Below, in pieces: positions 1 to 18,072 of a stretch of 64,000 nt of DNA (position 1 is its first letter; each line of letters begins with the position of its first letter). The notes beneath the pieces were generated by a model. The model was not told the origin of the DNA and did no database searches. It saw only the letters and a program-made list of their open reading frames with translations. The position numbers were made by a program, and so were the translations under genes. Source of the stretch: Alphaproteobacteria bacterium (GTDB lineage: Bacteria > Pseudomonadota > Alphaproteobacteria > Caulobacterales > Maricaulaceae); assembly GCA_030428405.1 (NCBI GenBank), contig JAUIEH010000001.1, forward strand, positions 5,082 through 69,081, given 5' to 3'.

Positions 1-3000
1 TCGCAAGCCCTGCTGTTCTGCTTCTTCGGAAGCGGCGGAAAGTTCGGGAGCGAGACCCGCAGCGCCGGACTGCCAGAGCGGGTGCGTAACGATGATGGCC
101 TCCTGACCGTTGGAAATGGCCGGTACACCGGCAAACACTGTCTGTTGAAAACCTGGCCTGGCGCCGGCGAGCGTGAGCGCCGCCGTTTCGGCCACGCGCG
201 ACCAAAGGGGCGACGCGAGCGTGATGGCTACATCGGGATCGAGCGCCAGCCGCGCCATGTCGACCGCAAGCCTCCAGTCGAGGAGGCTATGATACGCGAG
301 GTTGCTGTAGCTTCGAAGGCAGTCAGGGCATGACGTGTAACAGGCTTCGGCATGCAGAGCTGCGACGAGGCGCTCATGGAATTCGTGCGGCCCCTGCTCA
401 GCGACCATCCTCTGCAGCTCTTCGGCAACATCGGGCTGGCCCAGATAGGTCGCGTAGCCCGCGCCATTCTCCAGCGTGTCCGAAAGAAATATCTGGCCAA
501 CCACGCCGGCGGCGGGATCGTCATGGCTGCGGATGCCGGCCTTGAGCTCGTATTCCTGGATGTCGAGCAGCACCGAGGCCGCGCGCCGGAGCATGAACGC
601 TAGCGAGTATAGCGCAGCCCGTCCTTGAGGCGTCCTCGGATCGGCCGCGCATCCTTGCCCGTAGCTGCTGATGCCGAGCAGCAGCATGTCGGTCTCGCTT
701 ATGGCGGCGAGGGCGCACGGAATCGGCGCCTGACGAGGCGTCAGATTCGCTTGGGCGCGCCTGCCCAGTGCGGCGGCATGTTTGGTGTCGGCCGCCAGCG
801 CGGCATCGACGTCAATCATGGCATTGGAGTTGTTCCAGACCTGCGCCAGCTGAAACAGCCGGCCGCCATTGTCGTTGATGACGTAGACGCGCGCCGGACC
901 CGCGCCGATGTCGAAGTTGAGGTGGGAGCCCAGCGCAAAGGACGGATTGCCGACTTTGGGCCGGGCAGCTCGCGGGACGAAATCGAACGCGCCGTCATAG
1001 TCGCGCGCTTTGGCGTAGTAGCTCTGGAACCCTTTCGGCTGCCTGAGGTCGACCGGCCGGTATTCCTGCTCGCCTGCCCCTGAAGGCGCACCGCAAACAA
1101 GACAGGACGGAACGTCCGGATTGACAGTCTCGACATGTTGGCAGTTGCCGCACAGCCCGATGCGCACAGAGGGGCCTAGCGGGTTCGGGTCCTCGATGGC
1201 GCGGTTGCCCTGGGGTACGTAGTGTACCACGCCGATGGCCGTGTGGATGGCGCGCTCCTTGACCGTCTCGGCGCCGGGCGCGAACTGGCTAACGGCAAGC
1301 TCCAGGTCGCGATCGACGACCTCTTTTGGAGGCCATCGGCGAGGCTGCCGGTGGTAGAGATTTCTTGAGCGCGTGGGAAACCCGAACATTGGCAGGATGC
1401 CCCGGTTCGCTAGTCGCTCACTGAGGCCGACCTGGATCAGGCCAGGGTCGTCCGTTGCGTCGGTCACCTCCCGAACGAGGCGGCTTTCAATCCAGCGGAT
1501 CGCTTCATTGCGTTCGGCCGGCCTTCCCTCCAAGCGGGTTCCGACCAGGAGCGAGTCGCATACCTGGCCGATCTCGTCCGGATGGCGGTCGATCCACTCC
1601 TGAATAATCTCCGCGACAGTGGCTCCGCCATAGCCGGCTGGCTGCGCGATCGGTGGCTCCGTCCATGCGTCTGCGGGACCGAATTCGCCATGGACGCTGT
1701 TTCCGAGCGCGTCAGGGAACAGCGCGAGCTCGGCGAAAGCCTGACGGAGAATCTCTTTGCTCAGAACACGCTGGAGAATCTGGCGCCGCTCCGTATCGAC
1801 ATAGGGCGGGGGCGGCGGGTCGGCGGTGATCCGCTCCGGGCGCTGGAAGTAGTAGTCGTCGTGGCTGCGCCCGCGGCAAAGAGTCAGCCCGATCGATAGA
1901 GCGGCTCCCCTTCGCCCGGCGCGGCCGACGCGCTGCTGGTAGTTGAATCGCATCGGCGGCATGTTGGCCATCATCACCGCAAGCAGCGATCCGATATCGA
2001 CTCCCGCCTCCATTGTGGTGGTTACGCTCAGGAGATCGAGATTGTCCGTCAGAGCATGCTCGTCTCCGACCGGGATATTCTGGAACAACCGCTGACGGCT
2101 CCGTGCCACGAGCTTATCCGTCTGGCCGGTCATCTCCGCGCAGTTCAGACGGAAGATCGGGCCGGCCTCCGTGGCGAGCCAGCGGTAGTAGTCCATGGGC
2201 TGCTGATCATCGTCTGCCCCGATCTGCCTTGGCTCACCCAAAGGAGCTTCGCATCCGCTGCATATGCCGCCACTTGGATGGAGATGGACGCGCGAGCATC
2301 GCGCGCATTCATAGTATCGTTCCCCGGGCCGTGCGATGAAGAGACGGCTGTACATCAGTATCCCGCCGTCGAAGACACCGGCGCGGCCCAGCAACTCCGC
2401 CACGTCGCGCTCAAGGTCGCCATACTGCGGCCCGCGAGCGGTCGCTACGGCGGAAATATAGTCGCGCGCATATTTTGGCAGCCTGTTGTCGTCGGCGGTC
2501 GCCCTATGTGTGTCGAGCCGCCGGCGCTTGCCGAGCAGCCGGATGCAGCTATCCGCCGCCTCTTGCACGACGTTGTCGGATGCCGGATAGCGCTGCCGGT
2601 CGAAAGTCGCGGTGCCTAGCTTCAGCGACTCGAAATCGCGCCGCCCGCCGGAGAACACCGTTTCGGCATTTGCCTCACGGGCCGCGCTTTCTATCCGTCG
2701 GCGATGGTCGCGCTGATCCGGGGTCAGATCGCTGTCAGGGTAGAAGCCGGGCGGAACTCGGTTCCAGTCTAGCAGCCGCTGCCAGTCACCCTCGCCGGCC
2801 TCAAGGTCGGTCCACATCACGCTCCGATCGACACCTCCGGGGTTCATGCCGGCGGTGAGCAGCCGCCGCTCGGCTTCTGCCTGAAGTGCAGTGACCGGAT
2901 AGATGCCATCGCGGGCTTGAGCCGCGATCTCGTCAGCCAGCTGCTCCATGGTCAGGCCGCCAACAGGCGACGGGGTCGAGCCTAGCGCCGGATTTGCGGC

Positions 3001-5586
3001 AATCACGGAAATGGCGCCTGCTTCCTGGGGGCGCGACGCGGCAAACCGGTCAGCAAGCGCGGCCTCATCCGCAGGAAGGTCGTCGCCCCGGACGCGCCGC
3101 TGAAAAGCAATGATCGCGCGCCCTTCTTCCGCCATCGCTTCGACTAGCGCTTGGCGAAGGGCGTCGAGCCAATGTGATTTGGCGACGCCGACGGCGAGCT
3201 TGGCGGCGTCCTGCCGGCTATCCGAGAACAGCACGAGCTTGCGCCGTGCATCTTCGGTGTTTGCACCAGGTGTTGCCGGCGCGATCTCGCGGAGAAGCGA
3301 GTCGGACAGGACCTGTGCGATCTTCTGAAAGCCGGTGCGCTGCGTGCGGATTGGCGCAGCATTGGTCATCCTGCTCCAGTTGGCCTCGCAATGCGGGCAC
3401 AGGGCAGGCCTCTCGTTGCGCGCAGACTCGACGGCAGCCCGATCCGGCACAGGGTAACGATGCAGGTCGGGAACATAGTAGATCCATCCGGTCGCGTCTT
3501 GCGTACGGCGCGCCAGTTGGATTTCTCCCGAGCGGTGGTCGAATTGCGCCCGGCGCCATTGCCGCCCGACCCCGTCCTGCGTCCATTGGTTTCTTTGCGG
3601 GTCTAGCAGACGTCCATCGGGCAGACGCGCGGGCCAGTAGACCGCGTAGTTGTCATATTCCCGGTCATTGGCGGTGTGGTCGGGCGCGTTCTCGATATTC
3701 GGATCGTCCGGCACCAGGGACCACACGCCCGAGCGCGTCTCCCGGCGGTAGCCGCCGAGAAACACGTCTCCGCACGGCTCGCAATAGAGCATTTCTAGGG
3801 CGCGCGAGCCGCAGCGGCAGGTCGTGACTGGCCGGTTGAACAGCTGTCCGACGAGAACCTCTTGGCTGATGCGGTTAGCCTCGCTGCAGCCCGGATTACT
3901 GCATGCCCACACGCCCTGGACGTTGCGGAAGAAGATGTGCGCGCGCAGGGGGAGCAAGGGCGCTCCGCTGTCCGAATGCGCCGACGACAGGGCAGCGACA
4001 AGTGCGTGTGCGCCGGCGGTGGCGCTGTCTTCCGGGACATCGGGAAACAGCGCTACGCCAATCGCTGAAGGCGCGTGCGGAACAATCGTCGGCTGCTCGT
4101 CCGAGCTGCCGTTGCACACCGATCTGATGGCCTCCGGCGCGCGGATCGCTGTTAGCGCCGCGCCGAGGCGGCGCTCCGCCGGCAATGCGCCGTCTGGTGC
4201 CGCGATGCCCGCCTGTTCCGCGAAGCGGTCCACCGCCGTGTTGAGGTCCTCGGGAGGATCGACGACGAGCGCGCCGCCGAGTTCGGTGAGCGGCGCCGCA
4301 AGGTTTCGGACCGATCCCTCCGCTCCATGCGGAAGCGGCAGGGCGCCGCCGCGCACTAGGGCGAACGGCGTCGAACGGCCGAAGAACTGCCTCAGATAAT
4401 CTTGGGCTCGCTCCTCGTCTTCTCCGAGCGAGGCGCTAGATGCGAAAATGCGCAGCTGTGGGTGATTGGGATGGAGACCGAGCCGTGCGAACAGAACGCG
4501 AAGTATATAGCCGACTTCCGTGCCCGGCGTGCCCCGGTAGCTATGCAGCTCGTCCACGACGAGTTGGAAGACATGGTTCGGATCGGCTTCAAGCCAGCGG
4601 CGCGTCGAGTCGAAGATCGGCGATTCTACATCGCGCATCAGCATGATGTTCAGCATGCTGTAATTAGTGATGAGTACGTCCGGCGGCGCGTCCTGCATGT
4701 CCCACCGGCTCCACATCTCGCCGCCATCCATCCGCTGAAAGAAGCGCTCAGCGCTCGTTCCGCGCACGGCGTCCGCGAGTTCAGCAAGCCGTCTCAACTC
4801 GTCCCTCAGGTTCGCTTCTTTGCTAGTGCTGTCGGGACGACCGGCGATAGGCGTCCAGCCCGTGTAGCGGCCGAACCAGAAGCGGTTGCCAGGACGGTGG
4901 GTGCCGAGCCAGGCCCGAGCCTCGTTGCCATCAAGAGCCTTGCGCAGCCGTGCCATCTGATCCTCAGCGAGCGCGTTAAGCGGGTAGAGCACGAGCGCGC
5001 GGACCGCCGGCAGTCGACCACCCGCCTCATGCGCCCTCTGGGAGATGCGCGGATGGTGGACTCGCCGCCCCGAACCACGGGGCGGGTCCATCGCCCACCA
5101 GTCATTGCGCGGCGCAGCAGGCAATGCGGGCCAATGGGCTGACTCGCGTGCCAGCGCCGCGAGGATTGGCAGGTAGATTGCTTCGGTCTTGCCCGAGCCC
5201 GTACCGGTCAGAATGACTGTGTCACGCTGATCGGCGACGGAGATGCCGAGCATTTCGAACTGATGGGCGTAGAGTTCGAGTGGCGGGCGGTCCGGATCGG
5301 GAAGAAACAGGCCGCTCTCTGCAAATCCGGAGAAGTCCTCAAGCAGCTGGGTTGTCCAGCCATCGGCGTTGCCGAGCGCTGCAGGTATCGCCTGGCTGAT
5401 GTCATGTCCGCTTCCGGCATAGGGCGGCTGCGGCTCGATGAGCGGCTCGCGGTACAGTACGCCGTCCCGGTCGAGATTGCGCCGGCGCTCCTCGACGAGT
5501 TCCTCGAACCGGAGGTCGAAGGGGCTGTCGAAGTAGCGCAGATATGTTTGCGTGAGACCGTCGAAGGCCCGGATGGCGTTGGTCAT
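1..5586 (-). CDS. druE: Very large SF2 (DEAD/DEAH) helicase fused to a C-terminal DUF1998/MrfA-type zinc-binding domain; DruE-like. 5'-complete; the 3' end runs off the window (1862 codons open to position 1).
   Basis: Absent from the ORF track because it has no in-window stop; translated by hand in the minus frame from ATG 5586. The frame was re-checked at about 3369 and 1152. N-terminus is MTNAIRAFDGLTQTYLRYFDSPFDLRFEEL. Motif I is VILTGTGSGKTEA (about 5188-5208), motif II VVDELH (about 4543-4557) and motif VI QQRVGRAGRRG (about 1905-1940). The DUF1998-type tail is CYTSCPDCLRSYSNLAYHSLLDW (about 290-345). The ATG overlaps the upstream stop (ATGA at 5583-5586). All + strand ORFs listed in this span are short, Arg/Ala-rich shadows. 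Confidence 0.85.
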   Translation of the reverse strand, partial: MTNAIRAFDGLTQTYLRYFDSPFDLRFEELVEERRRNLDRDGVLYREPLIEPQPPYAGSGHDISQAIPAALGNADGWTTQLLEDFSGFAESGLFLPDPDRPPLELYAHQFEMLGISVADQRDTVILTGTGSGKTEAIYLPILAALARESAHWPALPAAPRNDWWAMDPPRGSGRRVHHPRISQRAHEAGGRLPAVRALVLYPLNALAEDQMARLRKALDGNEARAWLGTHRPGNRFWFGRYTGWTPIAGRPDSTSKEANLRDELRRLAELADAVRGTSAERFFQRMDGGEMWSRWDMQDAPPDVLITNYSMLNIMLMRDVESPIFDSTRRWLEADPNHVFQLVVDELHSYRGTPGTEVGYILRVLFARLGLHPNHPQLRIFASSASLGEDEERAQDYLRQFFGRSTPFALVRGGALPLPHGAEGSVRNLAAPLTELGGALVVDPPEDLNTAVDRFAEQAGIAAPDGALPAERRLGAALTAIRAPEAIRSVCNGSSDEQPTIVPHAPSAIGVALFPDVPEDSATAGAHALVAALSSAHSDSGAPLLPLRAHIFFRNVQGVWACSNPGCSEANRISQEVLVGQLFNRPVTTCRCGSRALEMLYCEPCGDVFLGGYRRETRSGVWSLVPDDPNIENAPDHTANDREYDNYAVYWPARLPDGRLLDPQRNQWTQDGVGRQWRRAQFDHRSGEIQLARRTQDATGWIYYVPDLHRYPVPDRAAVESARNERPALCPHCEANWSRMTNAAPIRTQRTGFQKIAQVLSDSLLREIAPATPGANTEDARRKLVLFSDSRQDAAKLAVGVAKSHWLDALRQALVEAMAEEGRAIIAFQRRVRGDDLPADEAALADRFAASRPQEAGAISVIAANPALGSTPSPVGGLTMEQLADEIAAQARDGIYPVTALQAEAERRLLTAGMNPGGVDRSVMWTDLEAGEGDWQRLLDWNRVPPGFYPDSDLTPDQRDHRRRIESAAREANAETVFSGGRRDFESLKLGTATFDRQRYPASDNVVQEAADSCIRLLGKRRRLDTHRATADDNRLPKYARDYISAVATARGPQYGDLERDVAELLGRAGVFDGGILMYSRLFIARPGERYYECARCSRVHLHPSGGICSGCEAPLGEPRQIGADDDQQPMDYYRWLATEAGPIFRLNCAEMTGQTDKLVARSRQRLFQNIPVGDEHALTDNLDLLSVTTTMEAGVDIGSLLAVMMANMPPMRFNYQQRVGRAGRRGAALSIGLTLCRGRSHDDYYFQRPERITADPPPPPYVDTERRQILQRVLSKEILRQAFAELALFPDALGNSVHGEFGPADAWTEPPIAQPAGYGGATVAEIIQEWIDRHPDEIGQVCDSLLVGTRLEGRPAERNEAIRWIESRLVREVTDATDDPGLIQVGLSERLANRGILPMFGFPTRSRNLYHRQPRRWPPKEVVDRDLELAVSQFAPGAETVKERAIHTAIGVVHYVPQGNRAIEDPNPLGPSVRIGLCGNCQHVETVNPDVPSCLVCGAPSGAGEQEYRPVDLRQPKGFQSYYAKARDYDGAFDFVPRAARPKVGNPSFALGSHLNFDIGAGPARVYVINDNGGRLFQLAQVWNNSNAMIDVDAALAADTKHAAALGRRAQANLTPRQAPIPCALAAISETDMLLLGISSYGQGCAADPRTPQGRAALYSLAFMLRRAASVLLDIQEYELKAGIRSHDDPAAGVVGQIFLSDTLENGAGYATYLGQPDVAEELQRMVAEQGPHEFHERLVAALHAEACYTSCPDCLRSYSNLAYHSLLDWRLAVDMARLALDPDVAITLASPLWSRVAETAALTLAGARPGFQQTVFAGVPAISNGQEAIIVTHPLWQSGAAGLAPELSAASEEAEQQGLR

Positions 5587-6455
5587 GCGGGTTTGAGCCC
5601 CGTAATGGCCAGCAGCATCTGCGTGATACGCACCGGCACGTTTTGAAAAACTAGCTCCCGGCTATCCGTATCAGTTTCGGGCAGCTTTCCCGAGCATAGA
5701 ACAAGTGCGCGCGCGATCAGTGCCGGTGGATAGAGCGCCCACGGCATGCGCAGACTGCGCGACGCGATATCCCAGCGGACGACCTTCGCCCGTTCGGCAG
5801 CAGCAAGCCTGCCAGCTCTTGGTTCTATCTGCGCCTGGCTGTTGGCGCCCTGCTTCAGAAGATGGACGTGGTCCCAATCGCGCTGGATGCGGAAGAAGCC
5901 GCGCCGCGCCTGCGCCGCCTCTTCGAGGGACGATGCGATCCAAGTCAGCTGGGATCGGGAGAACCGGCTAACCTCGCCGACCCGGCCAGCCACCATCGGG
6001 CATTCCGTTCGCGGCCAGTCCCGAATTTTTGGCAGACATGCCAGCAGCGTGAAGGCAGCATCGCGCTGAAAGGGAATCTTCGCTTCCGCCGCGGCGGCCA
6101 TGAGGTCCGCGTCGCAGGTTCCGATGACCGCGTACACCGATGGACGAGCTACCTGGCACTGTTCAATACAATCGGTGTCCGTGCGTGCGCAGGCAGATTC
6201 CAGCCGCTGTAGCAGTCTCGGCGACCGCGCCCCGCAGAGTACAGCCTTGCACGCACCGGTCTCCTCGCTCTCCGTCATCGCCAGAACCGGTGGCGCTATG
6301 CGCCAGCTCCCGTTGGGCTCTATTTCGGCGTGACCGAGAGCGGAGAAGTCTCTCAGAATCCGCAGTGGCCGTTCATCCGCGACGATTTCGCGCGGAAGGT
6401 CGCCGTCGCGGCCCGAGACGCGAAATGACATCCATTCGAGTAGGATGTCCGTCAT
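5583..6455 (-). CDS. Hypothetical 290-aa protein with no recognisable domain; occupies the DruG position of a Druantia type II-like operon
   Basis: Track ORF 5583..6638. I prefer the internal ATG at 6455 (MTDILLEWMSFRVSG...) because it forms an ATGA overlap with the stop of the upstream gene (6452-6455). Its own stop overlaps the druE-like ATG in the same way. Confidence 0.6.
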   Translation of the reverse strand: MTDILLEWMSFRVSGRDGDLPREIVADERPLRILRDFSALGHAEIEPNGSWRIAPPVLAMTESEETGACKAVLCGARSPRLLQRLESACARTDTDCIEQCQVARPSVYAVIGTCDADLMAAAAEAKIPFQRDAAFTLLACLPKIRDWPRTECPMVAGRVGEVSRFSRSQLTWIASSLEEAAQARRGFFRIQRDWDHVHLLKQGANSQAQIEPRAGRLAAAERAKVVRWDIASRSLRMPWALYPPALIARALVLCSGKLPETDTDSRELVFQNVPVRITQMLLAITGLKPA

Positions 6456-8491
6456 ACCCGCCCCCTCCAAACGCGGCGCGCTGCGTCCTTTGCTGACCGC
6501 CAGGCAGCCCTCGCAGCCTCGGTGTCCGGGCGAATAGGAAGTCGGCGTGTTGCGGCTGACCGGACCGACCTGGCCCAATCCTGATCCGGTGCATTTTTCG
6601 TCCGGGGGCGATCTGCGCTTGTCCCACGGCCGAGCCATAGGACTTTGCCCTGGCCGCGGCGAAGCCCCTTAGACAGGACAAGGAAAGCTGGCCGAAAAGG
6701 CAGGATGCCGATAGCGGCTGGCGCATCCGTGCGGCGGATCAGGGCTTGGATATTGGCCCGTGCCCCAAGCGCCAGCGCGCTCCAACTTGAGTCCCATGCG
6801 ACCACCATGCGCCCAGCGTTGGTGAAGATACGGGCACCGCAGATAGCAGTCCCTGCCCAGGGGGCGCTGTTACCCGATGGTTCGCGCTCAGGATGAGCAT
6901 CCCACGTTTCCCAGCCATCTGCGCCCCCCGGATCAGCGAGGACGGAATAGGTCAATGACGGCCCTGGCACGACGTCGACGAGATGGCTTCCGGGCGTATC
7001 TGAGCCCGGCGCCGTCCAGCTGCCGTCGCTTTGCTGCGTCGCTCGCTGACTGCCGATCTCGACCTCGCAGCCGGCAGGAAGAGGTTCGATCAGGATTTTT
7101 GGAACGTGCCCTTCCGCATACGTATTGCCCCGGACGGCAAGTCCGCCAATGAGCCGAATTTCAGTTGCCACGCCAGGATCAAGGGGCCGCAGGTAGTCCT
7201 CGAGTTGGCGCTCGGGCGAATGTCTGGGGGTGTAGCCCGTGAGTACCGCCCATCCTGCCGGAATGCCTATCCACCCCTGTATTACTTCGGGAAGCGGTGA
7301 TCCTGTGGACGCCGCTGTCTCAAGCACGGCTGGAGTGTCTTCCTCGCGGCAGATGATGGAGTGTTCAACTCGTGAGCTGGCCGCCGGAACGGAGAGCAGG
7401 TCGGGCTCACCTGCTTCGTTCGCAAAAAGATGGATGGAGCGGGCGCTACGGAGCCATTGTAGCTGCTGCGACGGATCGGTGAGCCGGATCTCGGTAGCGA
7501 GAATGTCGGGCGTCCAATCGATATCGACGTCGTCATACCGGATGTCGTCGAACGCACGTACCGGCTCATCGCAAATGCCATCCAGCTCGATCCGTTCAGG
7601 AAGCCCTTCAGGTCGTGAGAGGACGATTGACAGGCGGATCGATTTGCGGTTCGCGTCGATCGCCAACCGAAGCCTTGCTTCGGATTTGCGCAGAGTAGAG
7701 GCGGAAGCCTGACCAGTGGGCGTGCTTTCGGCCGCATTCGCAGTAGCAGCTCTGCGCGCGCCGCGGCGGTCTTTGTGCCGAGCGGGCCGGCGCGGTGGCG
7801 CAGATGGCGGCGGATGCGAGACCGGCGCTCCGCTCGCAGCATCTGAGGATGCTGGCAGCGGCTTGGCGGCGGGCGCATCGCTGGCCGCGTCGACACTCCG
7901 AACGGGCTCGACAGTTGATCGGGTCGCGCGGGAGGACTCACCTGAAGGGGGATGAAGTTGCTCGACTTCTGCCACCGGTGCCCGGGATTCTTCCAACGGC
8001 TTATTGTCAGGCTCGGTGCAATCGCATGTCCGCTCGTCTGCGCCGTCGTTGCAGGTCGGAGGCTCCTCGGGGGTGGCTTCCGCCGCGGTTTGTGGCAGTG
8101 GCTCCTCAAGAAGTGGAGACGCAGGGCCGTCTGCGCGATGATCTAGTGCCTCGCCGCGTTGCTGCTCAACTGCAGATGCGTCCTTTGGGCTTTGCACCGG
8201 CGCGTCTGGAGGTGCTCCTCGGGACCGAGACGGTCCGCTGGCTGGCGGCTTTTCTGGCAAGGTGGAGGGTGATTTGGCGCTGGCGACTTCCCTCGGCACC
8301 GCCGGCTCTGACCTCGCCTTCTCGATCGGGCCGGAAATCTCAGCTGGCGCGTCCGCCTGCTCCGGAAGGGGCTTCGCGGCGGTCTCGCGAGGCTTTCGAT
8401 TCTGGCGCCGCCAATGAACCGCCAGATCAGCCCCTGCGGCTCTCGCTGCTCCTAAAACGGAAAGAACGAAACGGAGCGCGCCAGACAGCAT
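6452..8491 (-). CDS. Hypothetical 679-aa protein. Hydrophobic N-terminus, then a Pro/Ala/Ser/Glu-rich low-complexity region of about 270 aa, then a C-terminal part of about 400 aa that looks globular. Occupies the DruF position.
   Basis: Long ORF in the track. It starts 16 nt downstream of the methyltransferase stop and is coupled to the next gene by ATGA. I recognise no catalytic motif. Confidence 0.65.
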   Translation of the reverse strand: MLSGALRFVLSVLGAARAAGADLAVHWRRQNRKPRETAAKPLPEQADAPAEISGPIEKARSEPAVPREVASAKSPSTLPEKPPASGPSRSRGAPPDAPVQSPKDASAVEQQRGEALDHRADGPASPLLEEPLPQTAAEATPEEPPTCNDGADERTCDCTEPDNKPLEESRAPVAEVEQLHPPSGESSRATRSTVEPVRSVDAASDAPAAKPLPASSDAASGAPVSHPPPSAPPRRPARHKDRRGARRAATANAAESTPTGQASASTLRKSEARLRLAIDANRKSIRLSIVLSRPEGLPERIELDGICDEPVRAFDDIRYDDVDIDWTPDILATEIRLTDPSQQLQWLRSARSIHLFANEAGEPDLLSVPAASSRVEHSIICREEDTPAVLETAASTGSPLPEVIQGWIGIPAGWAVLTGYTPRHSPERQLEDYLRPLDPGVATEIRLIGGLAVRGNTYAEGHVPKILIEPLPAGCEVEIGSQRATQQSDGSWTAPGSDTPGSHLVDVVPGPSLTYSVLADPGGADGWETWDAHPEREPSGNSAPWAGTAICGARIFTNAGRMVVAWDSSWSALALGARANIQALIRRTDAPAAIGILPFRPAFLVLSKGLRRGQGKVLWLGRGTSADRPRTKNAPDQDWARSVRSAATRRLPIRPDTEAARAAWRSAKDAARRVWRGRV

Positions 8492-8507
8492 AGAGAATCG
8501 CTCTTCG

Positions 8508-9737
8508 TCATGGGCGCAGCTGCGGGCCTTCGGCTTCTACGCCCAGAAGGGCACGAATGGCGTTCGAAACGGCGAGCCCCATTAAGGGCGGCACGGCGTT
8601 GCCGACCTGCTTCAGCTGCTGAAGCTCACTACCATAGAACACGAAGCCGTCGTGGAACGACTGCAAGCGCGCCGCTTCGCGTACAGTAATCCACCGATCG
8701 AACCTGGGATGAATCCACTCCGAGAGATCACGGTGCATCTGCGCGAGGATCGTATATGACGGCCTGTCCGGATCGAGCCGCCGCCACTTGTGCGCCCGAC
8801 TTCCGTTCCAGAGATGCGATGGCAGGGAATCTCCCCTCTCGCCCGGCTTGATGGCTTCGACGATTCGCTTCCGACGCTGCTCGATCCCCTTTGTGTGGTG
8901 ATTGTGAAGAAGCCTGCTTCCGTTGAGCTGCGCGCATTTCGATCTGATGCTCAGAAGATATGTTTCGCAGTCGAGCCGCATGAGGCGCTGATATTCGGAA
9001 CATCTGTCTTTCCGGCGTTTCGGGTACGGGAGGGGCCCATCATCTTCAGAAACTGATGAAGGAAGGTCCGAGATGGCTTCGCGGACCGTGACTGGCCGCC
9101 AGCATTTCTGCTCGGTCATCAGGTCGCGGCAAGCATCTTCGAGGCTTGCCTCAAGAGGCAGCCCATCGCGAAGGCCAATGAAAAACACGCGGCGCCGGTC
9201 CTGAGGCACGCCAAAGTCGGAAGCAAGTAGCGCAACGATCGCTGTGCGGAGATATCCCGCCTTTTGAAAGACCTCCAAAATCTGATCCCGATAGTGGCCA
9301 TTGCGCATGGCCACCATGTTGGGGACGTTTTCCATGATGAATGCTTTGGGCGCTAGCGCTTCGACGACGCGAGCGAACTCTCGGTACAGGAGGTTTCTCG
9401 GGTCTCGCAGGTCACGCGGGCCGATCTGGCTGAAACCCTGGCAGGGAGGGCCGCCATAGATCAGATCAATGTCCTCGGCAGCCAGCTCGCCTAGAGTTGG
9501 AATTTCGGGCCTGTCCTCTTTCAGAAAGCTGCGGATATCGCCACAGAAGAGCGGAACATCCGGAAAATTGGCTGAGAACGTCCGGCATGCATGTGGATCG
9601 GCTTCAACCGCGCACTTCATCTCGTAGCCCGCTAGCCTGACACCAGAGCAAAATCCACCAGCCCCGCTGAACAGCGAAACGGCGGTTAAGCTCTCAAGCT
9701 CGTTATCGTCGGCGGCGCTGGCCTTTGCTTCCATCAT
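8508..9737 (-). CDS. DNA (cytosine-5)-methyltransferase (Dcm family); DruM-like first gene of the operon
   Basis: Canonical C5-MTase motifs are present in order: I LFSGAGGF, IV GGPPCQGFS, VI IMENVPNM, VIII QDRRRVFF, X GNAVPP. Confidence 0.92.
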   Translation of the reverse strand: MMEAKASAADDNELESLTAVSLFSGAGGFCSGVRLAGYEMKCAVEADPHACRTFSANFPDVPLFCGDIRSFLKEDRPEIPTLGELAAEDIDLIYGGPPCQGFSQIGPRDLRDPRNLLYREFARVVEALAPKAFIMENVPNMVAMRNGHYRDQILEVFQKAGYLRTAIVALLASDFGVPQDRRRVFFIGLRDGLPLEASLEDACRDLMTEQKCWRPVTVREAISDLPSSVSEDDGPLPYPKRRKDRCSEYQRLMRLDCETYLLSIRSKCAQLNGSRLLHNHHTKGIEQRRKRIVEAIKPGERGDSLPSHLWNGSRAHKWRRLDPDRPSYTILAQMHRDLSEWIHPRFDRWITVREAARLQSFHDGFVFYGSELQQLKQVGNAVPPLMGLAVSNAIRALLGVEAEGPQLRP

Positions 9738-10370
9738 TTTCTTCAGGACTCAGAGTTCTCTAGTGTCTGACGGCGAAGTATTCTGGATGGCGATGCCGTC
9801 CGCGTTCTTCGACAGAGCGGCGTTGCCTTTTGGGAAGCGCTTCCCCGGCAAGTTCTGTGTGAGCGTCAATCAACATCGCCATGTCGATACACCTCCATGG
9901 ATGGGACCATCCGCCTCGATGGACGGTCTCGGCCAATTTCTAACCCAAGCTGATTCTCGGGACGTTCGGCGACTAAGCCAAGTCCGTCAGTCAAACTAGG
10001 CCGAGTTGAGCGGGGCTCGTCCTGGGTTTCCGGTTTGGTACTTTGGGGACGGAGTCCCACTCAGGATCTCCCTCCCAGCGTCAATGCTCCGCCGAATTCC
10101 GGCCAGCGCTTTTTCGTGTTGGGCGATGCGGCGCTCACGCCGGTCACAGCATGCGACGCTTAGCTAGAGCAGGTTGTGGCGGTCTCAAGCATCCGCAAGC
10201 GTCCCCCTCTCTCAACCGCGCATCCTGGCGCGGCCGCAGCGCTGGTGAGCGAAACCCGTTCGGGTGCTCCGCTTCGCTGCGCCCTGACGGTTCGCTCGTG
10301 CAGCGGCCGCGCCCCAGCCTGCGCCGTTCGCGAGGGGATCGGCCCCGCGCGCCAGCTTGAGGAACCCACG

Positions 10371-10697
10371 ATGGCCACGCTTGGATACGTCACCCGCCAG
10401 CCCGACGGCTCGTTCACCGGCGCTCTGCGCACGCTCTCAATTCGGGCCCGCCTCGACATTCTGCCCAATGACGGCAAGGTCGCCGACGGACATCCGGACT
10501 ACCGCGTCTACGCCGAAGACGGCGTCGAGATCGGCGCCGGCTGGAACCGGCGCTCGAAAGCCTCGGGCAACGACTACGTCTCCCTTAGCCTCGCCGCTCC
10601 CGAATTCGGGCCGCGTCCGATCTACGCCAATCTCGGCCACACGGCCGGCTCGGACGATCCGGACGCGTTCACCCTGATTTGGAATCCGGCGAGCTGA
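10371..10697 (+). CDS. DUF736 domain protein (ICE-associated)
   Basis: MATLGYVTRQPDGSFTGALRTLSIRARLDILPN...DYVSLSLAAPEFGP is the typical DUF736 pattern. I prefer ATG 10371, which has GAGGAA 7 nt upstream, over the long upstream extension of track ORF 10176..10697. Confidence 0.85.
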   Translation: MATLGYVTRQPDGSFTGALRTLSIRARLDILPNDGKVADGHPDYRVYAEDGVEIGAGWNRRSKASGNDYVSLSLAAPEFGPRPIYANLGHTAGSDDPDAFTLIWNPAS

Positions 10698-10711
10698 CGG
10701 CTCGCGCTTGG

Positions 10712-10740
10712 AGCCTCCGCGGATGCCGCGGAGGCTTCTT
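10712..10740 (+). terminator. Intrinsic-terminator-like hairpin after the DUF736 gene
   Basis: Perfect 11-bp stem AGCCTCCGCGG / CCGCGGAGGCT with a 3-nt loop (ATG), followed by TCTT. It starts 15 nt after the stop codon. Confidence 0.55.
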
Positions 10741-10841
10741 GACGCGGCTACTCACCGTCGTTGAACGGCTAGCACGGTATTTGCAACCTATCCGGTTAAG
10801 TCGCGGGTTGGCTCGCGCCGCCCGCATTGCAGGGGGCTGCA

Positions 10842-11699
10842 ATGATGACTGACCGAAGCGAGCAGGGGCCCTGGCGTCCAAATCCGGACGCCTACGCCTA
10901 CACTCGGATGCTCTCGACCTCCGGCTGGGCGTGGGAGTTCTTGCGCCGCAATTCCCAGTTCCGCCGCGAGGCACTGAAGCACCGACGGCGCGATCGGCCG
11001 GAGCGCCGAAACACTATCATCCCGTGTCCCCAAGACGACGGCACAATGTGGTTGATCGGCTTGCAGAGGGTCAACGTCGCCGAGCGCTGGGGCCTCGAAC
11101 TCTTCCCTGATCCCGACAAAAACGGGCTCGAGACGACGCCGTTCTGGCTTCCTGACGTCATAGGTGGCGACATCGAAGCGCTCATGGAGCCGCCGGCTCG
11201 CATAGGCTGCGACCTCTTCTCGATCTCGAGCGTGCCGAAGCGCAAAACCGTGCTGATCCGGCTCGGCGAGCGCGTTCGCATGACTGTGGACGGCTCCGGC
11301 TTCAATGAGACGATAGGCTGCGCGGCGCCGTCGGCGCCGCCGAGCGGCGAGATACTCGTTGCGTTGACGGTCGGCGGCGAGCGCAAATTCCGCACTCATG
11401 TAGACCGCCTTGGCGCGTTCCTCGACTACTGCCAAGCATCCGCGCCGGGCGCGCCGCGCATGGCCGAGAACGCCTCGCGGAGATTGAGGGAGATCCTGAT
11501 CGCCCTCGACGGGCGGCGTTCCGGGCGCTCCTATCGCGAAATCGCCTGCGCGTTCTACGAGCCCGATCAGGTCAAGGACGACTGGGCGACGAACGCTGCG
11601 ATGAAGCAGAGAATTCGCCGCCTTGTCCTTCGCGGCGACAGCCTCATGCGGAGCTGCTACAGGAGGCTGGTTGCGCCGCGCGCGGCGGCAGCTTCCTGA
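10842..11699 (+). CDS. DUF6499 plus DUF2285 domain transcriptional regulator (FseA-like ICE activator family)
   Basis: The N-terminal motif SGWAWEFLRRNSQFRRE and the C-terminal RRLREILIALDGRRSGRSYREIACAFYE (HTH-like) are characteristic of this family. I prefer ATG 10842, which has AGGGGG 5 nt upstream; the track ORF starts at TTG 10827. Confidence 0.8.
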   Translation: MMTDRSEQGPWRPNPDAYAYTRMLSTSGWAWEFLRRNSQFRREALKHRRRDRPERRNTIIPCPQDDGTMWLIGLQRVNVAERWGLELFPDPDKNGLETTPFWLPDVIGGDIEALMEPPARIGCDLFSISSVPKRKTVLIRLGERVRMTVDGSGFNETIGCAAPSAPPSGEILVALTVGGERKFRTHVDRLGAFLDYCQASAPGAPRMAENASRRLREILIALDGRRSGRSYREIACAFYEPDQVKDDWATNAAMKQRIRRLVLRGDSLMRSCYRRLVAPRAAAAS

Positions 11700-11723
11700 A
11701 CAGCCAGCTAAGGAAATGGACGT

Positions 11724-12239
11724 TCAAGGCGACCTCGCGCCATCACCGGTCAGCAGGTCCTCGAGGAAGAAAGCGGACAACTCGTTTCTTCCGGACAATC
11801 CCGCCTTGCGATAGAGCGCGCGGGCCTGCTCCCTCGCCGTCCGTTCGCTGGTCTGGCGAACATCTGCGATTTCGCGATGACTAAGTCCCTTCAGGAGGAG
11901 AAGGCCGATCTCGGCTTCCGCCGCGCTCAACCGCCAAGCATCGAACTGTTTCTGAATTGCGGAGCTTAGGCCGCGGACGATCTCTTGATTTTCCCGCCGC
12001 CAGCGCGCCGCATCTTCGCGCGCGGCGGCTAAGTCGCCGCTTACGCGGCTGACCGTGCGAAGCATCAGCACGACCCCAATCGCAGCGCCGATAAGCACAG
12101 TGCCTTCGATCGCCAGATGGACGATGCCCGCGCCTTCTTGGCGATCGATGACAAGATCGGCCGCGATCAAGATGGCGATCGCGCCAAACAGAAACGCCGA
12201 GGCCAGCCTGAGCCGCCGCTCCCTTACGTCATCCGACAT
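11724..12239 (-). CDS. Membrane-anchored LuxR-family helix-turn-helix regulator (two predicted TM helices, no receiver domain)
   Basis: The C-terminus LSAAEAEIGLLLLKGLSHREIADVRQTSERTAREQARALYRKAGLSGRNELSAFFLEDLL is a LuxR/GerE HTH. The N-terminus has two hydrophobic helices. ATG 12239 is preceded by AGGAGG. Confidence 0.8.
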   Translation of the reverse strand: MSDDVRERRLRLASAFLFGAIAILIAADLVIDRQEGAGIVHLAIEGTVLIGAAIGVVLMLRTVSRVSGDLAAAREDAARWRRENQEIVRGLSSAIQKQFDAWRLSAAEAEIGLLLLKGLSHREIADVRQTSERTAREQARALYRKAGLSGRNELSAFFLEDLLTGDGARSP

Positions 12240-12350
12240 AACGCCTCCTGATCGCACTTATTCGTCGGCGATCTGTCACACGACTAATAGCGCCCGCCGC
12301 ATACGCGCGACATGTCTAGTCGACGAAAAGAGCAGCGGAGCCGCAGCGAG

Positions 12351-13034
12351 ATGGCAACAGAGAAAGATGACGCGGTCGTTCGTGTCTGGGACCCGATAGT
12401 TCGGATCGGACACTGGGTTATCGTGGTCGGCTTCTTCACCGCCTATCTGACCGGCGACGAGTTTTTGTCGGTCCACGTCTGGGCGGGATATGCCGTGTCT
12501 GCGACAGTCGCTGTTCGCATCGTTTGGGGATTTGTCGGCCCGCGACACGCGCGATTTGCGAGCTTCGTTCGCGGCCCCGCCGCCACCTGGAGGCACATCT
12601 CCGGCTTGATCTCCGGCCGCGCCGAACGCCATCTCGGGCACAACCCGGCGGGCGCGGCCATGATCCTCGCCCTGCTGGTCGCACTTTCCGGAACGATCGT
12701 CTCCGGTTTGGCTCTCTATGCTGTCGAAGAAGGCAAGGGGCCGTTCGCGGTCGTGATGGCCGCCGCCAGCTCTGATTCCGAGCTCTCACGTGGGCTGGCG
12801 ATGTATCACTCAGACAGCCACGAGCGCGAGGAAGACGGCGAATACGATCGCGATCACGGTGAGCACGAATTCGAAGAGGCTGAAGAACTCCTCGAGGAGG
12901 CTCACTCGGCCTTCACCTACGTGACCTTGATCCTGATCGGACTGCACATTCTTGGCGTTGTCGCCTCAAGCCTCGCCCACCGCGAGAACCTCGTTCGCGC
13001 CATGGTGACCGGCGTCAAGCGAGCGGGAAAATAG
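12351..13034 (+). CDS. Cytochrome b561 / Ni-Fe-hydrogenase b-type cytochrome family membrane protein with an acidic, His-rich insert
   Basis: VRVWDPIVRIGHWVIVVGFFTAYLTGDE...HVWAGYAV...HLGHNPAGAAMILALL is the typical four-helix dihaem cytochrome b pattern. The insert is HSDSHEREEDGEYDRDHGEHEFEEAEELLEEAH. An alternative upstream start lies at 12312. Confidence 0.7.
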   Translation: MATEKDDAVVRVWDPIVRIGHWVIVVGFFTAYLTGDEFLSVHVWAGYAVSATVAVRIVWGFVGPRHARFASFVRGPAATWRHISGLISGRAERHLGHNPAGAAMILALLVALSGTIVSGLALYAVEEGKGPFAVVMAAASSDSELSRGLAMYHSDSHEREEDGEYDRDHGEHEFEEAEELLEEAHSAFTYVTLILIGLHILGVVASSLAHRENLVRAMVTGVKRAGK

Positions 13035-13338
13035 TCGCTCGCGCCTGCCTTGCGCGTGAGGCATGGGCGCCGTCGTGGCGCCGCGTTCCTGCTCAACGCA
13101 GCGCCCATGGTCCGCAATGCGTTGGCTAGAAGTCTTGAATCCAATTTGAGTCGAAGCCGTCATGGCCGAACGTCGCGCGAGGACCCAGGCGGCCATTTTC
13201 GACGATCTCCGGCCACTTGCGCGTGTCTTTCGGCAGGGGTGTCGACTGCGCTCAACCTGAAAACGTCACTCCTCAACATCCCAACCGCCGCTCATCCTCA
13301 CGCACCTGAACGCCACAAACAGTGCGGGGGCACAGCCG

Positions 13339-13545
13339 ATGAACGTCAATCATACCTCAGAGAATTCGAGCCCATTTTTCAACACGGCCGAGGCCGCCGT
13401 CTATCTACGCATGCGTAAGCGCACGCTCGAGAACATGCGCTGGCGCGGCGAGGGGCCGGACTTCCGCAAGCATGGTAAATGGATCTGCTACCACGTCGAC
13501 GACCTCGAAAAATGGTCGCGGGCGCGCGCGAGAAACGCGCGATGA
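13339..13545 (+). CDS. Excisionase-family / MerR-like helix-turn-helix DNA-binding protein
   Basis: FFNTAEAAVYLRMRKRTLENMRWRGEGPDFRKHGKWICYHVDDLEKW is the typical excisionase-type HTH. Its stop overlaps the next start (ATGA at 13542-13545). Confidence 0.8.
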   Translation: MNVNHTSENSSPFFNTAEAAVYLRMRKRTLENMRWRGEGPDFRKHGKWICYHVDDLEKWSRARARNAR

Positions 13546-14015
13546 GCGAGGCGCTACCGCTCACCGAGGTGACGCTACGGACCGAAGCGAAGGTCCGCCG
13601 CGAGCGCCTGCGCTTCGGCGCGCCCGTCCGTCGTCAAGCAATTTCGAAGCGCCAGCAGCTTGCCTGGTTGGCGCCAGACGCCACGTTCGCCCTCGTTCGC
13701 TGGAGGCGAAACGCCTACGGCACGGTGTCCTGGCGCTTGTTCATCGCGCAGGCCGGGCGGCCAGGCGAGGCGCTCGTCGCCATCCCCGGCGTACGCCCGG
13801 GCGCGCATGCGCTCGCGGTTCTACAGGGCGCTGTGCGCGTGCGCCGTGGCCTGCTGGCTCTGGGGGAACTAGAGCGCGCCGGCGTCAATCTGCTCGACAT
13901 TTCGCCCGCCTTTTGGCGGCGTTTTCAGGAGCGCGTCTTTCAAAAGAAGCCGCTCATTCTACCGTCGCCAAGCCAGGTCGCCTTTGGCTATGCGCGACGA
14001 AAGGCGCTGTCGTGA
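13542..14015 (+). CDS. DUF2840 domain protein (ICE backbone)
   Basis: Sequence is MSEALPLTEVTLRTEAKVRRERLRFG...WLAPDATFALVRWRRNAYGTVSWRLFI. Position immediately upstream of traF is as in related ICEs. It has an ATGA overlap upstream and a GTGA overlap downstream. Confidence 0.7.
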   Translation: MSEALPLTEVTLRTEAKVRRERLRFGAPVRRQAISKRQQLAWLAPDATFALVRWRRNAYGTVSWRLFIAQAGRPGEALVAIPGVRPGAHALAVLQGAVRVRRGLLALGELERAGVNLLDISPAFWRRFQERVFQKKPLILPSPSQVAFGYARRKALS

Positions 14016-14539
14016 AGCGCAAATCCCAACGGATTTCCGCTCTGATCGCGGTCGGATTCGTGCTGATCGCCGCCGCGTCCGCGATCGAACGGCGGCCCGT
14101 TCTTCTCTATAATCCGAGCCCGAGCGCGCCGCGCGGGCTCTATGTCGTGCGCCCATCTGCGACAGCGGAACGCGGCGATCTCGTCGCCGCGCGGCTGCCC
14201 GAATGGGCCCGCGAACTAGCGTCCGAGCGAGGCTACTTGCCCTCCGGACTACCCGTCATCAAGACGGTTTGGGCCGTCGCCGGCGACCGCGTTTGCGCCG
14301 AGAACGGAAGCCTGCGCGTCGCTGGCCGACCGGCCCTTATCGCCCTCGAATCCGATCGCGCGGGACGCACGATGCCGCGTTGGAGCGAGTGCCGGACGCT
14401 CCAGAACGGCGAGGTTTTCCTCGCATCTACCCAAGTCGATGAGTCCTTCGACGGGCGCTACTTCGGGCCCGTCTCCGCAACCAACATACTTGGACGCGCC
14501 GTGCGCGTCTGGCCGCGCGAAGGGACGCAGCGCCCGTGA
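14012..14539 (+). CDS. traF: Conjugative-transfer signal peptidase TraF (S26 family)
   Basis: This is the C-terminal 175 aa of track ORF 13472..14539: N-terminal TM helix, then NPSPSAPRGLYVV...GDLV...SFDGRYFGP, an S26 peptidase pattern. Start is GTG 14012, overlapping the DUF2840 stop. Confidence 0.8.
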   Translation: MKRKSQRISALIAVGFVLIAAASAIERRPVLLYNPSPSAPRGLYVVRPSATAERGDLVAARLPEWARELASERGYLPSGLPVIKTVWAVAGDRVCAENGSLRVAGRPALIALESDRAGRTMPRWSECRTLQNGEVFLASTQVDESFDGRYFGPVSATNILGRAVRVWPREGTQRP

Positions 14540-14775
14540 GGCGGTGCGGACGAACGGCGCGGGGGGAAGGGGTGGGGGCTTTAGGCAAGATAAAAGGAGG
14601 CGGCGCCAAAGCGCGCCTCGCCCCTTGTCTGCACATCGAATCCGGCGGCGCCGGAACTTTTCTCGAACGATGTCGCGCTTTCGCGCAAGCGTTTGATATC
14701 GCGCGCGAATTCGTGGCGCCGCTTTCACGTATTCCAACGATTTCAGACGGTTAGCCCCCTGAGCCCCCGCGCCCA

Positions 14776-16707: not shown

Positions 16708-16930
16708 CTGCATGCTTCTCTACAGCGATCGCGCCGAGTCTGGCGGCAGAGCTTCGGGAGCAGGCTTAGATTTCCAAATATGCCGTACAGACTCCGTCAC
16801 AACCGAATCACCAATATCCTACGACGTCACATTCTGCGGCAATTGCTGCGCCAGCCTGCCTGTGGCGAGGCACGGTGCGGACGCAGCCAAACTCAGTTAG
16901 GCAAGTGAGAGAAACGCATCACACAGAACA

Positions 16931-17824
16931 ATGACGGACTCGAACACAACCTACAGTGATCAGCAATTGCTCGACTTCATCTTGGCGATGGAGGACGCAC
17001 TACTAGAAGAAGGTATGAGTCCGGAGGCTCGAGGCTTCGAACTCCCTCATCGTGTTCTGGACCAGCTCGGCTACGTGTCCTATTTCACGACCGGCCCTGA
17101 TCAGCCAGCGGTCCTGGAACGCCTTCGGGCGATTCACGAGCGCCTCTACCGACCGCACGACGTCGGCATGGGAAGACTTCACTCCGGCGCATTCATGTTT
17201 CGTGGCATCGCGGTCCACGTGTTTGTGCCGATCGTTTTTGGTCAGGTGCGTGTAAGGCCGTTCGAATGGTGCGATCTCAACGAAATGCAAGTGCAATGGC
17301 TTCAATCAAATGCCTTCCACGTCAAAGCGTACCTCGCGACGTTCGCAGATATTTTTGATTTTTGCGCCGGAATTCATCCGTTTGAAGGCTACGCGCCGCC
17401 AAATGACGCTGCGAAACGTTGGTTCGACCTTGCCTCGTTCCAGCTACAGGGCGCGAGCGCGATTCTTTGCGCGCACTTGGACGGGCGTGGAGCTACTCAA
17501 AGCGCATTGCTAGGCTCTGAGCTCGCGCTGAAAGCGCCTTTGGCCGCAAATGGTGTGGCGGAGACCGAGCTGAAGAAGCTCGGTCATGATCTCAAGGGCC
17601 TCGCGGACGAAGTGGCGGCGCGATATTCGGACTTCGACCTGCCGGCAGTGCAACAGCGGGTGGCGCTACTCCCTCCCTACGTCGCAAATCGCTACGCACC
17701 GGTTCAGCCTTCCCTCTTCGAGGCCGGCGAGATCGTTGTGGCGGCCCAGTTTGTAGCTGCTGAGGCGATGCGCGCAGTCACTGGCGGTCGCGTTCAAGCA
17801 AAAGCAGGTGCCTTCGCGTCGTAG
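16931..17824 (+). CDS. Hypothetical 297-aa protein with a C-terminal HEPN-like helical region
   Basis: The segment SALLGSELALKAPLAANGVAETELKKLGHDLKGLADEV matches the classic HEPN pattern (E-alKA-L...G......HDL--L). GC content is lower than in the flanking backbone genes. Confidence 0.6.
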   Translation: MTDSNTTYSDQQLLDFILAMEDALLEEGMSPEARGFELPHRVLDQLGYVSYFTTGPDQPAVLERLRAIHERLYRPHDVGMGRLHSGAFMFRGIAVHVFVPIVFGQVRVRPFEWCDLNEMQVQWLQSNAFHVKAYLATFADIFDFCAGIHPFEGYAPPNDAAKRWFDLASFQLQGASAILCAHLDGRGATQSALLGSELALKAPLAANGVAETELKKLGHDLKGLADEVAARYSDFDLPAVQQRVALLPPYVANRYAPVQPSLFEAGEIVVAAQFVAAEAMRAVTGGRVQAKAGAFAS

Positions 17825-18072
17825 GTGCGCTGCGGGATCAGCAGAGTCGCGGACGATTTCTTATTGCGCCCGTGTGCGGTGGCAACGGCGCTCGATCGGC
17901 ACCGCCGCTGAGTTCTGTCTCGACGCGTAGGATCCCGTCTATGTCTCCGCATCTTCGCTGTTGCGGTACTCGTCGAATCGCATGGGTTGACCTCTCCAAG
18001 CGCCTGCTCCAGCGACTGACGACGGCGAGGTAGTGATATGACGCGGGGGAGTCAGATTCGGCTCAAAATGCT

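Follow-up and report, generated by a model that had tools for sequence, protein, structure and literature searches.

A Druantia locus of six genes, a variant in the type IV/II lineage, inside an integrative conjugative element of an alphaproteobacterium

A 64,000-nt stretch of DNA from an Alphaproteobacteria bacterium (Caulobacterales, Maricaulaceae; GenBank assembly GCA_030428405.1, contig JAUIEH010000001.1, positions 5,082 to 69,081 of the forward strand), hereafter the window, carries at its left end most of a six-gene defence module of the Druantia family. The genes encode, in order, a C5-cytosine DNA methyltransferase (MTase), a divergent DruF-like protein, DruL, the giant helicase DruE, a Vsr protein and a 171-aa protein, and the module is cargo inside a tRNA-integrated integrative conjugative element (ICE), near the integrase end. 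Judged by its sequence, the locus is a Druantia system whose core is of type IV and whose methylase is a type II trait, and we class it as a type IV/II variant. We consider it probable that the module marks self DNA by methylation and attacks unmarked DNA with the helicase. Druantia is a known and widespread family, of which types II and IV form the uncharacterised half (approximately 40% of the Druantia loci in one survey; 10.64898/2026.05.13.724313). The locus provides new, testable leads: the in-operon pairing of methylase and Vsr, a swappable nuclease slot and a probable membrane anchor of DruF.

The preliminary description of this DNA recognised a four-gene operon at the edge of an ICE. 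Its four co-directional minus-strand genes were confirmed: two junctions are ATGA overlaps that were read directly (6452–6455 and 5583–5586), and a 16-nt gap separates the methylase gene from the 679-aa gene (8508 versus 8491). The giant minus-strand frame at 1–5586 is open over 1862 codons without interruption and leaves the window at the left edge, as had been noted. The operon nevertheless has six genes rather than four. An exact-protein look-up retrieved a 20.7-kb public contig (L001) that is 100% identical to window positions 1–16455 (16,455 bp, 0 mismatches) and provides the leftward extension that had been recommended. It completes DruE to 1877 aa, with 15 codons and the stop lying outside the window, and reveals the two genes that follow; vsr starts 10 nt after druE, and the 171-aa gene overlaps the vsr stop codon. 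All six genes are joined by start/stop overlaps or by gaps of 10–16 nt. The start of the 290-aa gene was set at the ATG at 6455, because more than 100 homologues have 288–290 aa and share the beginning MTD(I/L)LLEW; a longer open reading frame (ORF) extends to 6638. The DruE-profile score of the helicase (1745 bits) and the large homologue families of both middle proteins place the locus far beyond chance.

Past the 171-aa gene, the public contig carries an ArdC gene and a tyrosine integrase gene in convergent orientation. Approximately 370 bp beyond the integrase gene (L001 ~20545–20573, ~4.1 kb past window position 1), the 3′ end of a truncated tRNA with T-arm, acceptor stem and CCA was identified by eye; ARAGORN cannot call it, since the gene is cut off at the contig end. 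This tRNA is likely to be the attachment site of the ICE. Neither a matching attachment repeat nor a tRNA was found in the window, and the search thus did not reveal the opposite end of the element. The transfer side of the element, which lies in the window, encodes DUF736, a DUF2285-type regulator, TraF, a DUF3363 relaxase, TraG, TrbB and TrbE. The element therefore has what defines an ICE, namely a tRNA-adjoining integrase, a relaxase, a coupling protein and type IV secretion genes, in the layout tRNA-int-ardC-(six-gene module)-DUF736-transfer genes, with the module ~3 kb from the integrase end. Because ArdC, the integrase and the truncated tRNA lie beyond it, the module is internal to the ICE and not at its edge. 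For the biology of the ICE, this means that a defence module adjoins ArdC and the integrase.

The fourth gene encodes a giant DruE-type helicase (~1800–2100 aa in the family) with a DUF1998 zinc module, the combination by which Druantia is generally recognised. The motifs GTGSGKT, DELH and QQRVGRAGRRG are located at residues 128, 345 and 1217, with the terminal cluster, CPDC, at 1753, which agrees with the earlier reading of this gene as a giant superfamily 2 (SF2) helicase with a DUF1998-type Cys cluster. The PADLOC profile DruE4 matches residues 2–1876 with 1751 bits, ahead of DruE2 (1623 and 1548 bits), DruE1 (626 bits), DruE3 (342 bits) and DrmA (~30 bits). Among the Pfam families that the preliminary description had proposed to search, PF00145 is matched by the methylase, and DEAD (44 bits) and Helicase_C (25 bits) by DruE, whereas MZB/DUF1998 reaches only 19.1 bits (E 0.002), below its cut-off of 24.2 bits. 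Sequence matches in the PDB are 9wae_A, named 'Helicase' (590 bits), 9tu7_Y (136 bits) and YprA 6znp (32 bits); a literature search on entry 9wae gave nothing relevant.

Type II Druantia was reportedly defined by Doron and colleagues in 2018 as DruM-DruF-DruG-DruE, and the 290-aa protein had been taken for DruG. None of the six proteins matches a DruG model at E ≤ 0.01 or at E ≤ 0.1, and the 290-aa protein instead matches DruL4 (PDLC00057) with 97 bits (E 2.4e-28, residues 2–280); its identity as DruG is rejected. In PADLOC, type IV consists of DruE, DruF and DruL and was described without DruM and DruG (PMC8565338; Payne et al. 2021), and a 2026 preprint accepts four DruE clades, I–IV (Loeff et al.). 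The core is assigned to type IV because the 290-aa protein matches DruL4, DruE4 scores above DruE2 and no DruG is matched. The DruM of type II is also represented (PF00145 212 bits, DruM2 262 bits), though the generic model MTase_II scores higher at 382 bits. Conversely, the description of type IV as having neither DruM nor DruG fails here, since DruG is absent and a C5-MTase is the first gene in this locus and in 12 related loci. Hence the earlier label 'Druantia II-type' stands as to Druantia, with a C5-MTase first and DruE last of the four genes then known, and does not stand as to type II. In terms of PADLOC models, DruE and DruM2 were matched as had been anticipated, DruF models were matched weakly by the 679-aa protein, and DruG was not matched.

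Table 1. Features of the Druantia module (positions refer to the window unless the public contig L001 is named).
Feature	Gene	Coordinates	Strand	Product or remark
C5-cytosine DNA methyltransferase (DruM-like)	1	8508..9737	-	409 aa
Divergent DruF-like protein	2	6452..8491	-	679 aa
DruL	3	5583..6455	-	290 aa
DruE, SF2 (YprA/MrfA-like) helicase with zinc-binding modules and DUF1998	4	1..5586	-	residues 1-1862 of 1877
vsr	5	L001 16514-16999		161 aa, TIGR00632; off-window
171-aa protein gene	6	L001 16999-17514		off-window
Divergent intergenic region methylase/DUF736		9738..10175	.	presumed operon promoter region, by position only

DruL is at home in a large family. At least 317 homologues of 288–330 aa were found, and the family comprises 1428 clusters at 50% identity, nearly all of them stand-alone proteins of 290–330 aa. 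The 290-aa protein also matches, with 44–50 bits, the C-terminal 250 positions of the DruF2 models that are 1011 and 1030 positions long (50 bits at 770–1026 of the latter). Because it corresponds to the C-terminal part of these long models, it looks like a split-off part of DruF. The alignment points to DruF-DruL fusions among the type II DruF proteins and to a gene split as the difference between types II and IV. The AlphaFold model of DruL (pLDDT 92, pTM 0.88) is built of repeated small α/β modules; comparison with the PDB gave no match for it at E ≤ 0.001 and a TM-score of 0.2 at best, and no PDB sequence match was found either. In agreement with the preliminary description, which recognised no domain in the two middle proteins, neither the 679-aa nor the 290-aa protein has a family in Pfam or NCBIfam, and neither AlphaFold model shows an enzyme fold. 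DruL is predicted to be an adaptor or sensor subunit that has no recognisable enzymatic domain.

The 679-aa protein consists of a weak N-terminal hydrophobic helix, a Pro/Ala/Ser/Glu-rich linker of ~200 aa and a β-rich C-terminal domain of ~420 aa that ends in helices. Its only PADLOC matches are to DruF-named models, and these are weak (17.5–18.6 bits, E ~1e-4), with DruF4 and DruF2 equal at 17.5 bits. The family has 76 homologues; 36 of its members likewise match DruF-named models only, with a best E of 1.5e-8, and the DruF proteins of standard-looking type IV relatives also reach just 20–30 bits. From these matches the 679-aa protein is tentatively assigned to a diverged branch of DruF, one at the limit of what current profiles pick up. 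Annotation with these profiles would miss DruF here, and the system would be called incomplete or mistyped. The AlphaFold model of the C-terminal 449 aa (pLDDT 79) shows tandem Ig-like β-sandwiches and two terminal helices; neither this model in a PDB fold search nor the family profile in a PDB sequence search found a significant match. In 22 of the 35 DruF homologues examined, the Kyte-Doolittle 19-residue mean hydropathy (KD19) of the N-terminal helix is at or above the threshold of 1.6 (range 1.8–3.4), and the helix is mostly followed by basic residues (RRR; judged by eye) and then by a disordered, Pro/Ala/Glu-rich linker of ~200 aa. Under the positive-inside rule used for membrane topology, the Arg/Lys residues after the helix would place the folded domain in the cytoplasm, and DruF is probably membrane-anchored. 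The copy in the window has a KD19 of just 1.36, with R7, R17 and D22 inside the helix. On an independent metagenome contig (L025), DruF is called at 904–2978 as two ORFs of 479 and 212 aa, which is either a frameshift or a natural split.

The first protein carries the catalytic motifs of a C5-MTase, as had been described, with FSGAGG at residue 23, PPCQGFS at 97, ENV at 136, QDRRR at 179 and GNAVPP at 379. It scores 212 bits with PF00145, 174 bits with TIGR00675 (dcm) and 225 bits with the PADLOC model DrmMII, below DruM2 and the generic model; its nearest solved structures are 3g7u and M.HaeIII. The Vsr protein at the other end of the operon, 8.5 kb away, matches PF03852 (96 bits), TIGR00632 (138 bits, cut-off 98) and E. 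coli Vsr 1cw0 (98 bits), and retains the catalytic motifs PD and HGCFWH of the E. coli enzyme.

Species-representative genomes were scanned with the DruL alignment, which yielded 21 loci, and the six proteins were then placed by tblastn. The order MTase-DruF-DruL-DruE-DruK-Vsr occurs in 10 genomes (L003–L010, L012 and L013), with the MTase position of L005 and L006 lost at a contig end. L014 shows this order too, although its DruE is degraded, and in L002 the order is the same apart from the missing DruK. The genomes with the conserved order belong to Alpha- and Gammaproteobacteria, an Obscuribacterales metagenome-assembled genome (MAG) and a Binatia MAG. The exact six-gene form occurs again on L025, where the 171-aa gene is 80% identical. 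Orthologues of the methylase, 64–78% identical, occupy the same position in L002–L010 and L012–L014, and in L011 a 28%-identical C5-MTase is found there. In all 17 loci where the MTase could be scored, a C5-MTase lies within ~4 kb of the DruF-DruL-DruE core, upstream in the operon in 12 and downstream or on the other strand in five. Vsr accompanies the MTase in 13 loci. More distant, ordinary-looking type IV loci show the same pattern of PADLOC scores. Only a few relatives share the ArdC or the integrase of the present ICE, and the module moves between contexts; a tblastn search of PLSDB plasmids with DruL gave no match. This recurrent association of a DruL-type core with an in-operon cytosine methylase and a gene for the repair of 5-methylcytosine (5mC) damage suggests that the boundary between types II and IV is blurred.

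Two of these loci deserve separate mention. In L019, a C5-methylase gene and an overlapping HhH-GPD glycosylase gene lie downstream of DruE (16421–18290), the glycosylase taking the place of Vsr; it belongs to a different enzyme class, which could perform the same repair of 5mC damage. In L002, a MAG of the Gammaproteobacteria, an IS66-like insertion splits DruE (16022–18508) and the methylase match is in two pieces; this copy is probably inactive.

The gene between DruE and Vsr in the relatives (~380 aa) is the DruK of PADLOC. It is a PD-(D/E)xK protein whose signature is of the Cas4 type, made up of an N-terminal Cys, RPD, E/D-x-K and C-x2-C-x5-C. The window locus and its nearest genome relative, L002, have no DruK; in this sub-clade the 171-aa gene is carried in its stead. 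Depending on the locus, the nuclease slot is taken by DruK, by the 171-aa protein, by a GHKL/REase_II-like protein after DruE (L015) or by an HNH protein beside the methylase (L018), which suggests that the nuclease position is interchangeable. Over 2200 sequences of ~168 aa make up the 171-aa family, and D90, E101, E103 and K115 are invariant among them (a D..ExE..K pattern). UniRef labels some of the homologues 'restriction endonuclease', a label that no profile or structure test backs. In hhalign comparisons, the family related neither to the DruK alignment (probability 0.1%) nor to BamHI (probability 0.5%, in a rough test). Two other contexts of 171-aa homologues were examined, one beside a type I restriction-modification (R-M) system and one among hypothetical genes, and neither has a C5-MTase nearby. 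The former is that of Roseimaritima ulvae (L024), where the homologue at 6001–6507 lies 77 nt upstream of hsdM-hsdS-hsdR and is co-directional with it. Proteins of the 171-aa family may serve restriction systems more generally as accessories.

Compared with the known systems, the locus is closest to type IV, with which it shares a core of DruL, DruE and a putative DruF, DruE4 and DruL4 as best models and, in its relatives, a DruK that is already a PADLOC model; it differs in having a methylase as first gene, vsr in the operon, no DruK, the 171-aa gene after vsr and a DruF of only ~18 bits. With type II it shares the methylase at the front, DruE at the end, two function-unassigned proteins between them and substantial DruE2 and DruM2 scores. 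However, it has no DruG, and vsr and the 171-aa gene are additions. An McrB-like GTPase (inactivated, a CnuB homologue) with a long coiled coil has been reported for types I and II (PMC12458937); neither feature is present in the DruF or the DruL model, which contain no P-loop fold and give no McrB match, and an McrB/McrC-like (CoCoNuT) nature of the two proteins is rejected on the predicted folds. In type III, DruH combines Ig-like repeats with a helical domain at its C-terminus for the binding of DruE (10.64898/2026.05.13.724313), a layout that the DruF model here shares with its tandem Ig-like folds and C-terminal helices, and the helicase cores are homologous (DruE3 and 9tu7_Y). Unlike type III, which has no methylase and whose nuclease is a PLD domain within DruE, the present locus has no DruH, and no sequence similarity of its DruF to any PDB chain was found. 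DISARM likewise combines a YprA-like helicase and DUF1998 with a DNA methylase thought to mark self, but in the present locus helicase and DUF1998 are fused in one protein and DrmB, DrmC, DrmD and DrmE are missing. The C5-MTase and canonical Vsr are also those of Dcm-Vsr pairs and M-V-R type II systems, except that here the two genes are parted by the 8.5-kb DruF-DruL-DruE block, and no demonstrable cognate restriction endonuclease was found.

From the gene content, gene order, conservation and fold classes described above, we infer each functional step of the following model. The methyltransferase, as its domain and conserved position in the operon suggest, would place 5mC on a short motif in resident DNA as a self mark. 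Vsr would nick the T:G mismatches that arise by deamination of 5mC and offset the mutational cost of the mark; such a role is established for the Dcm/Vsr pair of E. coli. DruE would be an ATP-driven motor. Analogy with its type III counterpart and with the DrmA of DISARM suggests that it loads on foreign DNA that is entering or replicating, at single-strand/duplex junctions or at ends, and that it translocates 3′ to 5′; type III DruE is a 3′–5′ helicase-nuclease at duplex/single-strand junctions (10.64898/2026.05.13.724313). DruF and DruL, which carry no catalytic signatures, would be its partner subunits and keep DruE inactive or guide it, and in most relatives DruF would be tethered to the inner membrane through its N-terminal helix and long flexible linker. 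Cleavage is expected from a separately encoded nuclease, because only an inactivated Vsr-like nuclease domain has been predicted for type I/II DruE (PMC12458937). The Cas4-like DruK could serve in most relatives, whereas the 171-aa protein or host nucleases would be the candidates in the present sub-clade, where DruK is absent. A methylation mark is known to be left by type I Druantia (10.1101/2024.04.14.589459). The preliminary description had called the mechanism of Druantia essentially unknown, which is outdated for type III, the subject of four 2026 preprints, and still true for types II and IV.

Several observations weigh against this model. The literature search found no experiment for any type II or type IV Druantia. 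The core may work without a methylase, because PADLOC described type IV without one (PMC8565338), and in the distant loci the MTase lies downstream or on the other strand next to a nuclease of its own, an arrangement that resembles an R-M system adjoining the core within a defence island. At 17.5 bits the match to DruF is weak, and with a helix below the usual threshold the anchoring of the window copy is uncertain. The C-terminal 150 aa of DruE compared with Vsr by hhalign gave no signal, a result that speaks neither for nor against the reported inactivated nuclease domain. Finally, the 171-aa protein has no match in Pfam (28 family members searched), PADLOC or the PDB; no relation to DruK or BamHI could be detected either, so that a role as nuclease is conjecture.

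Part of this evidence would fit two systems that share one transcript, in which Vsr and a Dcm-type methylase, possibly with the 171-aa protein as their endonuclease, form a type II R-M/repair module around a methylation-independent type IV core that recognises DNA structure, as type III does. The methylase scores higher on the generic type II MTase model than on DruM2 (382 versus 262 bits), PADLOC defines type IV without a methylase (PMC8565338), type III Druantia works without methylation (10.64898/2026.05.12.722862), in distant loci the MTase, on the opposite strand, is paired with an HNH or GHKL protein of its own, and the vsr gene overlaps that of the 171-aa protein, some of whose homologues bear the UniRef endonuclease label. 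However, methylase and vsr stand at opposite ends of the operon in an order that is fixed across phyla, and such nesting would hardly arise by chance. Moreover, most relatives have no 171-aa gene, and the absence of a nearby C5-MTase in the two other contexts argues that the 171-aa protein is not a classical cognate endonuclease. We regard the two-system alternative as serious but unlikely. Distinctly improbable is a canonical four-gene type II system with the 679-aa protein as DruF and the 290-aa protein as DruG: the gene order and sizes resemble the published scheme and DruM2 and DruE2 score 262 and 1623 bits, but at E ≤ 0.01 no DruG was matched, the 290-aa protein is DruL4, DruE4 surpasses DruE2, the operon has two further genes, and the middle proteins contain no McrB-like GTPase or coiled coil (PMC12458937). 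We give hardly any credence to class 2 DISARM, or to an unrelated helicase beside a plain R-M pair. Local matches of DrmA, BrxH and DpdJ (20–43 bits) fall on helicase motifs and DrmMII matches the methylase with 225 bits, whereas the DruE profiles span the whole 1877 aa at 1751 bits, against ~30 bits for DrmA; DrmB and DrmE are absent, and DUF1998 forms one protein with the helicase, as it does in DruE. On these scores DISARM was rejected together with other helicase systems, in line with the preliminary description, which had named DISARM as the alternative to be excluded.

The model of a methylation-marked self and a helicase attack on unmarked DNA can be extended in two ways. A membrane-tethered, methylation-gated restriction machine, in which a DruL-DruE complex anchored at the inner membrane by DruF and its long flexible linker would meet DNA as it enters, a dedicated repair enzyme (Vsr or a HhH-GPD glycosylase) would pay the mutational cost of the mark and the cutter would be an exchangeable cassette (DruK, the 171-aa protein, a GHKL or an HNH protein), is speculative and in our judgement rather unlikely in its entirety. 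There is also the possibility that the effector nuclease is the free-standing Vsr itself, docked on the inactivated Vsr-like domain predicted for DruE.

In the intergenic stretch between the methylase and DUF736 genes no sigma-70 consensus site was found, and promoter and terminator scans around the operon were uninformative. On the far side of this stretch, the module is adjoined by genes for a DUF736 protein (10176–10697, plus strand), which matches Pfam only from residue 69 onward and may therefore really start near 10371, and a DUF2285 (RovC_DNA-bd) regulator (10827–11699, plus strand). The pair resembles the region of the FseA-type excision activator in elements like ICEMlSymR7A. A DUF3644 protein (18073–19266, minus strand) matches the PADLOC candidate defence family PDC-S19 with 150 bits; its gene, a second defence-type cargo of the ICE, lies in a low-GC islet (54.7% versus ~65%) between the relaxase gene and traG, and the element thus carries at least two defence-type cargo genes. 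Past the trb genes, at a change of sign in GC skew, an AcrB-family RND efflux pump is encoded at 34170–37403 (minus strand), which is either cargo of the ICE or part of the chromosome.

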